Shown in pieces: positions 4,035-60,964 of a stretch of DNA of 64,000 bases. Position 1 is the first letter of the stretch. Each line of letters starts with the position of its first letter. The notes beneath the pieces were generated by a model. It did no database searches and was not told the origin of the DNA. It was given only the letters and a program-made list of their open reading frames with translations. Origin of the DNA: Escherichia coli. GTDB taxonomy: Bacteria > Pseudomonadota > Gammaproteobacteria > Enterobacterales > Enterobacteriaceae. The translations under genes were made by a program, and so were the position numbers. The stretch lies in assembly GCF_048403405.1 (NCBI RefSeq), contig NZ_CP183129.1; one strand, given 5' to 3'.

Positions 4035-4742
4035 TCAGGCAAACCAGGCGGTCCAGGCGGCGGAAAGCGGCATTGCCAGAAGGAGTGCTGGAAGCATGTT
4101 GACCACCGGGAACATTTTAATGCCACAGATGCGTAATCCGGTTGCCAGCAGCAATAAACCGCCTACGGCGCTGAAGTCTGCCATCATCGACGGTGTGGTC
4201 AGCGGTAATATCAGCGCGGCAGCCCACGCCAGCGTTAACTGGATGATCAGTAATGGAATGCTAATCACCGACACCGCAATACCCAGCGAGCAGGCGAAGA
4301 TCATCGCCGTAAAGAAATCAAGAAATGACTTGGCGATTAAAATACTTGGATCGCCGGTCATCCCTTCGTTCATCGCCCCGAAGATTCCGGTGCCGCTGGC
4401 GCAAAACAGGACAATAATCGCGACAAAATTCTGAATAAAAGATTCATGCGCTGGCTTCTTACGCGAGTGGTGAAACAGATTATGCGCTTTGGCGACCACT
4501 GTATTGACGCCTTTTTCCAGCAGACAAATTTCGCCGATTAATGCTCCGAGTAAGGTTGCTAAAACCATCGCCGGAAGGTTGGCGCATTTCACCACCAGTA
4601 AAATACCAATCCCCAGCGATGCCAGACCAAAAATTGATGTCATGGAGACGCGGATACGTTCCGGTAAGCGTTGGCTAAGGAGTGCGCCGAAAACGCCACC
4701 CAGTAAGACTGCACTTGCGTTGATAAAAGGGCCGATGACCAC
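4035..4742 (-). CDS. yqgA: Inner-membrane protein YqgA (DUF554)
   Basis: 235-aa polytopic membrane ORF recognised as YqgA; conserved position between pheV and speC. Confidence 0.85.
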
Positions 4743-58983: not shown

Positions 58984-59877
58984 TTAATCCTGACGAAGGA
59001 CTTTGTGACCATAATCGAGTAACGCATCAGTGACTTTACGCATCATGCGGCTTTCAGGAGCAAAGCGGTGCCAGTAGAGCATCCGTCGTTGAAATAGCCC
59101 AGGCGTTAAGTCAATCAGTTCACCGCTGGCCAGCTCTTTCTCGATTTGCAGGTGCGGGATCATACAGCAGGTGGTGCCCTGGCGAGCAAGTTGCACGAAC
59201 GCTTCTGAAGAATTAACGATATGGCAGGGTACGCTGCCAGGAGGCAGATCGAAGTTTTGCTGCAAAAAGGCCTGGTGCATATCGTCAAGATGGTCAAAGG
59301 CGACCACTGGCGCTTTCAATAATGCCGAACGCGTTACGCCGTTAGGGAAATATTTTTCGGCAAACGGTTTTGAGCTGACGAACAGATAGTCGAGCGCACC
59401 AAGTTTATCGACAAGACAACTCGGCAGTGCCTGATGTTGAATACTCACCGCGCCGACCACTTCGCCGCGGCGCAGACGTTCCTGAGTGCGGGTTTCATCT
59501 TCTACCTGCAAGTTGAGGCGGATAGGCGAATCAGCCAACACAGGAGCCAGTGCCGGAAGCAACCACGTCGCCAGACTGTCGGCGTTGACCGCCAGTGAAA
59601 GCAGCAGCGGAGTCGAACCGGTTTGTTCATCGCCCAGCCACTCTTCTTCCAGCAACTCCACCTGGCGCAGCAGTGCCAGCAGTTTTTGCCCTTGTTCCGT
59701 CGGGCGCGGCGGTACGGTACGCACCAACAGCGGCTGCCCGAACATATTTTCCAGTTGCTTAATGCGCTGTGAGACGGCTGATTGTGTAATGCACAGCTTT
59801 TGTGCCGCGCGCTCAAATCCTCGTTCACGTATCACCGCATCCAGTGCCTGTAATGTTCTGTAGTCCGGGCGTTTCAT
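58984..59877 (-). CDS. argP: LysR-family regulator ArgP (IciA)
   Basis: 297-aa product starting [25 protein letters not shown]; recognised as ArgP. Confidence 0.95.
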
Positions 59878-60018
59878 TGCTGTTGTCTGCTCCTGGTAAA
59901 TGCTTTTTCCTGCACTATGACACAATTTTGTGTCAGGTTGCATATACCGAAGCCGTCGGCGGGTAACATTTGTATTCGTGGTTAAACGCGCAGCTTAAAA
60001 GATCAGGGATTTGCGCTA

Positions 60019-60249
60019 ATGCATTTCGCTCAGCGAGTTCGCGCCCTGGTTGTGTTGAATGGCGTGGCGTTATTGCCCCAATTTGCCTGTAAACAGGGGC
60101 TTGCGAACGGTGAACTGGTGCGCCTGTTTGCACCGTGGAGCGGCATACCCAGATTGTTGTATGCCTTATTTGCGGGGCGAAAGGGGATGCCTGCCATTGC
60201 GCGATATTTTATGGATGAGTTAACCACGCGGCTTGCCAACGGGGTCTGA
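60019..60249 (+). pseudogene. yqfE: Remnant of a LysR-family regulator (C-terminal fragment only), at the position of K-12 yqfE
   Basis: 76-aa ORF resembling only the C-terminal effector-domain end of LysR regulators; no HTH domain upstream. Confidence 0.55.
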
Positions 60250-60304
60250 ATCGCTTTTTTTGTATATAATGCGTGTGAAATTTCATACCATAGGCGAAAC
60301 GATC

Positions 60305-60964
60305 ATGACGCAGGATGAATTGAAAAAAGCAGTAGGATGGGCGGCACTTCAGTATGTTCAGCCCGGCACCATTGTTGGTGTAGGTACAGGTTCCACCGCC
60401 GCACACTTTATTGACGCGCTCGGTACAATGAAAGGCCAGATTGAAGGGGCCGTTTCCAGTTCAGATGCTTCCACTGAAAAACTGAAAAGCCTCGGCATTC
60501 ACGTTTTTGATCTCAACGAAGTCGACAGCCTTGGCATCTACGTTGATGGCGCAGATGAAATCAACGGCCACATGCAAATGATCAAAGGCGGCGGCGCGGC
60601 GCTGACCCGTGAAAAAATCATTGCTTCGGTTGCAGAAAAATTTATCTGTATTGCAGACGCTTCCAAGCAGGTTGATATTCTGGGTAAATTCCCGCTGCCA
60701 GTAGAAGTTATCCCGATGGCACGTAGTGCAGTGGCGCGCCAGCTGGTGAAACTGGGCGGTCGTCCGGAATACCGTCAGGGCGTGGTGACCGATAATGGCA
60801 ACGTGATCCTCGACGTCCACGGCATGGAAATCCTTGACCCGATAGCGATGGAAAACGCCATAAATGCGATTCCTGGCGTGGTGACTGTTGGCTTGTTTGC
60901 TAACCGTGGCGCGGACGTTGCGCTGATTGGCACACCTGACGGTGTCAAAACCATTGTGAAATGA
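60305..60964 (+). CDS. rpiA: Ribose-5-phosphate isomerase A
   Basis: 219-aa product starting [19 protein letters not shown]; recognised as RpiA. Confidence 0.96.

Follow-up and report, generated by a model that had tools for sequence, protein, structure and literature searches.

The closest described counterpart of the locus reported here is the pseudogene yqfE (b2915) of Escherichia coli K-12 MG1655, a 231 bp feature between rpiA and argP (NC_000913.3, positions 3059381-3059611). Its RefSeq record carries no product and no note, and leaves both an azoreductase remnant and the origin of the first 13 codons unannotated. A search of the literature on yqfE, b2915 and the start sites of rpiA returned a single mention of yqfE, in a list of deleted genes, and no transcript or proteomic data. 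The LysR-type regulators YafC, AaeR, GcvA and ArgP of E. coli belong to the same superfamily, but are paralogues only: the sequence described below aligns weakly to their C-termini and scores far under the family cut-offs, and argP, which lies beside it on the opposite strand, is a separate, intact LysR gene. The orthologue is a 298-aa LysR-type protein, WP_022646093.1, encoded at the same place beside rpiA in a small fraction of E. coli strains. Orthologous DNA extends over the last 63 codons of its gene, the stop codon and the downstream spacer. Residues 1-235 (HTH_1 and most of LysR_substrate), the divergent promoter and the target operon, by contrast, are missing from the sequence studied here.

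In the window, i.e. the whole stretch of 64,000 nucleotides that was analysed, argP and rpiA are both intact and are separated by 427 bp, in which one noteworthy ORF of 76 codons is found (Table 1). This ORF shares with K-12 yqfE the locus, the orientation toward rpiA, the 231 bp extent, the 55 bp spacing to rpiA and 75 of 76 amino acids; it differs by leucine instead of proline at residue 46 and by a few silent changes. The original prediction, which had equated it with the yqfE pseudogene of K-12, is thus confirmed in position, extent and sequence. Over 2.9 kb the window is 98.96% identical to K-12, from which we conclude that the strain is an E. coli other than K-12. A 431 bp query covering the interval has matches in 5425 of 5426 complete E. 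coli genomes and is 100% identical in strain TUM14771. We regard the ORF with high confidence as a gene remnant that has no function, namely the yqfE pseudogene of E. coli.

Table 1. Features of the argP-rpiA interval and its flanks, in window positions.
Feature	Position	Strand	Basis
argP, flanking, intact	58984..59877	-	100% aa identity to ArgP WP_000828351.1
Putative scar of a second, left-hand deletion	59934..59977		no detectable DNA homologue in intact islands
FMN-dependent NADH-azoreductase-like 3' remnant, residues 182-207 of 209, unannotated	59978..60055	-	tblastn, DNA
yqfE ORF/pseudogene, 76 codons and stop, chimeric frame across the deletion junction	60019..60249	+	K-12 b2915 match
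Deletion junction	60056..60057		joins positions 2654 and 4001 of L001
LysR-family gene 3' remnant, residues 236-298 of 298 and native stop	60058..60249	+	tblastn, Pfam
rpiA spacer, from remnant stop to rpiA ATG at 60305	60250..60304	+	sequence; variant counts
rpiA, flanking, intact	60305..60964	+	100% aa identity to RpiA WP_000189743.1

A chimeric reading frame across a deletion junction

The LysR-derived part of the ORF is confined to codons 14-76 (60058-60246). A tblastn search of the 64-kb window with full-length WP_022646093.1 gave this segment as its sole match, covering residues 236-298 with 62 of 63 positions identical (98.4%, E 1.8e-36), and residues 1-235 were absent. At the DNA level the remnant is about 97% identical to the WP_022646093.1 genes adjoining rpiA, and it is collinear with intact lysR through the stop codon into rpiA. 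Profile searches recover the same relationship: ORF residues 15-72 correspond to positions 151-208 of the 209 positions of Pfam LysR_substrate (E 7.8e-6), with a score of 25.9 bits that falls just under the gathering score of 28 bits, and the NCBIfam matches are weak and confined to the far C-terminal ends of LysR-family models. From profile evidence alone the LysR assignment would be marginal. A Pfam search of the ORF found no HTH_1 domain. The reading frame is closed upstream by a TAA at 59983-59985, and everything left of 60057 belongs to another gene on the other strand.

These results bear out the earlier claims that the encoded LysR effector domain is limited to its C-terminal part and that no HTH domain lies upstream. 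The check proposed at the time, a TBLASTN search with a full-length homologue, was carried out with the orthologue itself and revealed no in-frame N-terminal domain. The extent given originally, 60019-60249, holds for the ORF, but only 60058-60249 is derived from LysR. A functional LysR regulator has an HTH_1 domain and a complete LysR_substrate domain of about 209 positions, both of which are missing from the remnant; by descent it belongs to the LysR family, as indicated by the full-length orthologue at the same locus.

The 5' part of the ORF has a different source. The junction joins the antisense 3' end of an azoreductase gene to codon 236 of lysR, and the sequence 60019-60056 supplies the ATG and approximately the first 13 codons, with codon 13 spanning the junction. 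These codons are not LysR because they stem from antisense azoreductase sequence, and the 76-codon ORF exists because an antisense azoreductase ATG happens to be in frame with the junction. The azoreductase tail is recognisable both by tblastn (80.8% identity over 26 aa, E 2e-9) and by its DNA, of which 59999-60056 is 91% identical to positions 2597-2654 of L001, a sequence that carries the intact genes.

The junction marks the loss of 1346 bp: 542 nt from the 5' end of the azoreductase gene, the 100 bp between the two divergent genes and 704 nt from the start of lysR. The ends share a short GG(T)TGGG-type microhomology, so that the breakpoint can be placed only to within 1-2 nt. The same junction is found in all remnant alleles in which this position is still present.

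Further to the left, 59823-59933 of the window corresponds to positions 1-111 of L001 (the 5' end of argP and the sequence immediately upstream), and the next match is reached only at the azoreductase tail. For the stretch in between, 59934-59977, blastn-short searches and alignment found no counterpart in the intact islands. We interpret this stretch as the scar of a second deletion that removed the BhsA-like and NOX-like genes described below. The rest of the 64-kb window yielded no further pieces of the regulator, the azoreductase or the remaining operon genes.

A separate deletion has occurred in the lysR gene of L021, a metagenomic E. coli contig (437-1237, minus strand), in which 96 bp are lost in frame (residues 204-235). 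Its right end, between cttggtgg and gaatggcg, lies no more than about 2 nt from the main junction of yqfE, so that two independent deletions end at the same GGTGGG site, inside a near-Chi sequence (GCTtGGTGG). This site may be a deletion hotspot, or the agreement may be a coincidence.

The intact gene and its divergent operon

The intact state was first flagged in strain EC11, in which the interval query matched only over its right-hand 59% and a full-length LysR regulator is annotated beside rpiA. In EC11 and MS6198 the interval contains, counted from argP, genes for a FAD-binding oxidoreductase, an IS1 element, and genes for a ferric-reductase-like transmembrane protein, a DUF1471/BhsA-like protein and an FMN-dependent NADH-azoreductase. 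The latter is followed by the divergently oriented gene of WP_022646093.1, which ends 55 bp before rpiA. This regulator is complete in its domains (HTH_1 at residues 4-63; LysR_substrate at residues 88-294, profile positions 2-208), and no named NCBIfam equivalog reaches its cut-off, the best being PRK14997 with 168 against 380 bits.

In two metagenomic E. coli contigs that lack the IS1 element (L021 and L069), both reductase pieces are joined in one ORF of 441 aa with Ferric_reduct, FAD_binding_8 and NAD_binding_1 domains, i.e. with a NOX/ferric-reductase-like architecture. The azoreductase-like protein of the operon is a Flavodoxin_2 protein, and the BhsA-like protein is of the YdgH/BhsA-like periplasmic type.

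Of 5426 complete E. coli genomes, 247 (~4.6%) retain the azoreductase-lysR segment in undeleted form, a count that is based on at least 80% coverage of a 1434 bp query and reflects coverage, not ORF integrity. A scan with one genome per species recovered the arrangement argP-operon-lysR-rpiA-serA in four genomes: Escherichia whittamii (LysR with 96% aa identity), Escherichia sp. E1V33 (94%), Escherichia sp. MOD1-EC7003, in which lysR is frameshifted, and a metagenome-assembled genome of Pseudocitrobacter (72%). Since the same synteny occurs in outgroup lineages of Escherichia and in Pseudocitrobacter, the full gene is ancestral and the state of the window is derived by deletion. Relative to an intact orthologue, and with the outgroups giving the direction of change, the remnant is a truncated gene, i.e. 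a pseudogene.

We therefore propose the following course of events as the one most consistent with these comparisons. The ancestral interval held a 298-aa LysR-type regulator with HTH_1 and LysR_substrate domains, transcribed toward rpiA, and divergent from it an operon of azoreductase-like, YdgH/BhsA-like and 441-aa NOX-like reductase genes. The 1346 bp deletion, which has short microhomology at its ends, took the 5' halves of both divergent genes together with their shared promoter region and brought codon 236 of lysR directly next to the antisense 3' end of the azoreductase gene. A second deletion took the rest of the operon, and the remnant is now drifting. The "old gene decay event" of the original prediction consequently stands as gene decay, and is refined to a deletion of defined size that is still polymorphic within the species, as ~4.6% of the genomes keep the segment. 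With no HTH domain, about a quarter of the effector domain, and its own promoter and target operon lost, the remnant cannot act as a LysR regulator; judged from its sequence, it is probably neither expressed nor functional.

The intact islands show lesions of their own, and the NOX-like reductase gene has been inactivated independently in several lineages. It is split by IS1 in E. coli EC11 and MS6198 (L001, 884-1581; L006, 2818-3515), carries an internal deletion and a frameshift in E. whittamii (L007, 4383-4933) and multiple frameshifts in Escherichia sp. E1V33 (L008, 3931-4941). In MOD1-EC7003, where lysR is likewise frameshifted, a deletion fuses the DUF1471 gene to the 3' end of the reductase gene (L010, 4642-5254 and 6001-6895). 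The whole island appears to be decaying across the genus Escherichia. The island is also heterogeneous in nucleotide composition: in L069 (2435-5725) lysR has a G+C content of 55.7% and the divergent operon, from the azoreductase to the NOX-like gene, one of 44.2%. This is a sharp contrast to the flanking serA-rpiA and argP-scpA genes with 51-53%, and may stem from an ancient horizontal acquisition of the operon.

Variation of the remnant and its interpretation

The variation of the remnant was assessed in 73 alleles (45 haplotypes), drawn from complete genomes and from a metagenome scan for a conserved 18-mer, which yielded 97 stretches, 14 of them unrelated chance matches. The sample includes low-coverage metagenome contigs, whose errors would look like neutral singletons and 1-bp indels. 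The ORF is broken in 15 of the 44 haplotypes that were scored. A TAG at codon 5 occurs in 10 haplotypes, usually together with a change of the ATG to TTG; four deletions shift the frame (10 bp, 1 bp in two cases, and 89 bp), the longest of which, in strain N96, spans the junction, and one haplotype has a TGA nonsense codon. In-frame deletions comprise two different ones of 45 bp and one of 21 bp, each flanked by repeats of 4-5 nt. By megablast, which can miss copies with scattered mismatches, the 48 bp segment 60079-60126 is present in 2882 of 5426 complete genomes and absent from 2543 of the 5425 that carry the locus (~47%).

The two 45 bp deletions over the 60079-60126 region (L002, L015, L016, L017 and L040) are bounded by GCCT in one case and by TTTGC microhomology in the other, and the GCCT-bounded deletion is found in strains labelled O157:H7 and in many others. 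An assignment of a 45 bp deletion and an early TAG to K-12 was rejected: NC_000913.3 has the full 231 bp ORF, and it is strain BHUCD01 (L002) that carries these lesions. In the group with TTG start and TAG at codon 5, a G to A substitution has produced another ATG immediately ahead of the LysR-derived part, and the resulting ORF of 50 aa is called as a protein in some annotations. Recombination among alleles is indicated by haplotype h43, whose body is undeleted although its upstream markers are those of the 45-bp-deleted group.

In the 55 bp spacer upstream of rpiA, which contains a TATAAT at 60265-60270 and has the same sequence in strains carrying intact lysR, variation is much lower than in the remnant: 3 variants in 60250-60305 (56 bp, including one base of the rpiA ATG) against 39 in the 189 bp of the remnant, or 5.4 per 100 bp (the minimum of the interval) against 20.6 (the maximum). 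The spacer 60250-60304 presumably comprises the promoter and 5' UTR of rpiA. A consensus promoter and terminator scan of both strands of the interval found none, and likewise misses the real argP and rpiA promoters; an Rfam scan of the interval at E<=1 found no RNA family. In E. coli N96 a 123 bp repeat of the ERIC/IRU type lies directly before the TATAAT box (L004, ~4300-4418), and an element of the same type is inserted at the same site, between the lysR stop codon and rpiA, in the island-bearing contig L021. The insertion point corresponds to the position between 60264 and 60265 of the window, which lacks the element.

The position of the remnant directly upstream of rpiA, the strong conservation of the TATAAT-bearing spacer and the fact that ancestral lysR was read toward rpiA across the same 55 bp could be taken as indications that the remnant is kept not for a protein product but for the expression of rpiA, to which it might contribute, e.g., a translated leader or a portion of the promoter or UP region upstream. 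We consider this very unlikely. The conservation ends at the stop codon, and the body of the remnant is the most variable stretch of the interval. Natural strains with identical RpiA commonly carry premature stop codons or large deletions within the remnant (45, 21, 10 and 89 bp), and N96 tolerates the ERIC insertion between the remnant and the TATAAT box.

The substitution pattern in the LysR-derived bases bears on a possible role of the encoded peptide. The 39 variants fall into two groups. Singletons that are absent from intact alleles comprise 7 synonymous and 10 non-synonymous changes (5, 5 and 7 at the three codon positions) and fit the neutral expectation of a non-synonymous fraction of 0.69-0.75 (p 0.10-0.26). 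The shared, older variants comprise 15 synonymous and 7 non-synonymous changes and deviate from neutrality (p<0.001), which taken alone would suggest purifying selection on the reading frame. However, the intact lysR alleles of E. coli and other Escherichia are polymorphic for many of the same variants (60081G, 60111G, 60129C, 60104T, 60156A, 60174C, 60192T, 60201A and 60231A), and for this reason the synonymous bias is no sign of constraint on the remnant. The simplest reading is that the shared variation arose in functional copies and would have reached the remnants by common descent or recombination. An earlier interpretation as purifying selection, based on 12 alleles with 18 synonymous and 6 non-synonymous changes and with deletions that were all taken for multiples of 3, was dropped with the sample of 73 alleles, in which frameshifts, a nonsense mutation, neutral-looking singletons and the sharing of synonymous-biased variants with intact alleles speak against it. 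In this modest sample no purifying selection on the remaining frame is apparent.

The same observations weigh against a role of the 76-aa ORF as a small protein in its own right, in which the C-terminal piece of the LysR effector domain would stand alone, be maintained by selection and, e.g., interact with other LysR-type regulators. Such a protein could be suspected from the integrity of the ORF, which the window shares with K-12 and most long-form haplotypes, from the synonymous bias of shared polymorphisms, from a plausible if weak ribosome-binding site (a Shine-Dalgarno-like AGGGA 9 nt 5' of the ATG) and from the CDS calls made by PGAP in many genomes. Against it, the ORF is destroyed or truncated in a third of the scored haplotypes (15/44), about half of the E. 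coli genomes have lost a further 45 bp, and a common haplotype group has lost the start and acquired the TAG at codon 5. The singletons look neutral and the synonymous-biased variants are those shared with intact alleles. Furthermore, the ORF covers only about 58 of the 209 effector-domain positions and would be unlikely to fold alone, and no promoter of its own was detected by the insensitive scan mentioned above. We judge this explanation to be even less probable than a role in rpiA expression.

Equally improbable is a more restricted version, in which only the long 231 bp allele, as found in the window and in K-12, would be translated as a chimeric micro-protein of 76 aa with a lineage-specific role. 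Such a product could consist of 13 residues of antisense-azoreductase origin and the last 63 residues of the LysR effector domain. If this were true, it might modulate other LysR-type regulators or couple translation to the transcription of rpiA, and the synonymous bias of the shared polymorphisms would be due partly to selection and not to inheritance alone.

A chance resemblance of an arbitrary intergenic ORF to LysR, for which only the Pfam score under the gathering threshold could be cited, is dismissed given the near-identity to the C-terminus of a full-length LysR protein at the same chromosomal position and the collinearity of the DNA into rpiA.

The interpretation as a drifting, non-functional remnant is thus retained. 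Its ancestry, its junction, the missing N-terminal part and its further decay in the population are direct observations. The remnant probably persists as nothing selects for its removal and small neutral remnants are lost slowly; in addition, deletions extending rightward would damage the conserved region upstream of rpiA, which may aid its persistence.

Significance of the locus

The yqfE pseudogene itself is already known. The present analysis adds the exact junction, the azoreductase remnant, the origin of the 5' end of the chimeric ORF and a catalogue of secondary lesions, and likewise shows that the intact LysR gene and its divergent operon survive in approximately 5% of E. coli.

The names given to the remnant by PGAP vary between "hypothetical protein", "LysR substrate-binding domain-containing protein" and "type 2 periplasmic-binding domain-containing protein", or the remnant is not called at all, and the label pseudogene is attached to it only in the curated K-12 record. 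This inconsistent naming is a warning for annotation pipelines, and the locus is an example of a domain-fragment pseudogene that is recognisable from raw sequence, although it has little weight for biology at large.

Within E. coli the locus provides a resolved case of gene decay in one species, with a junction defined at base level and later lesions in graded stages, and is convenient as a marker for population structure. The independent inactivation of the operon in several Escherichia lineages is a hint that members of this genus can do without it or that it is costly to them.
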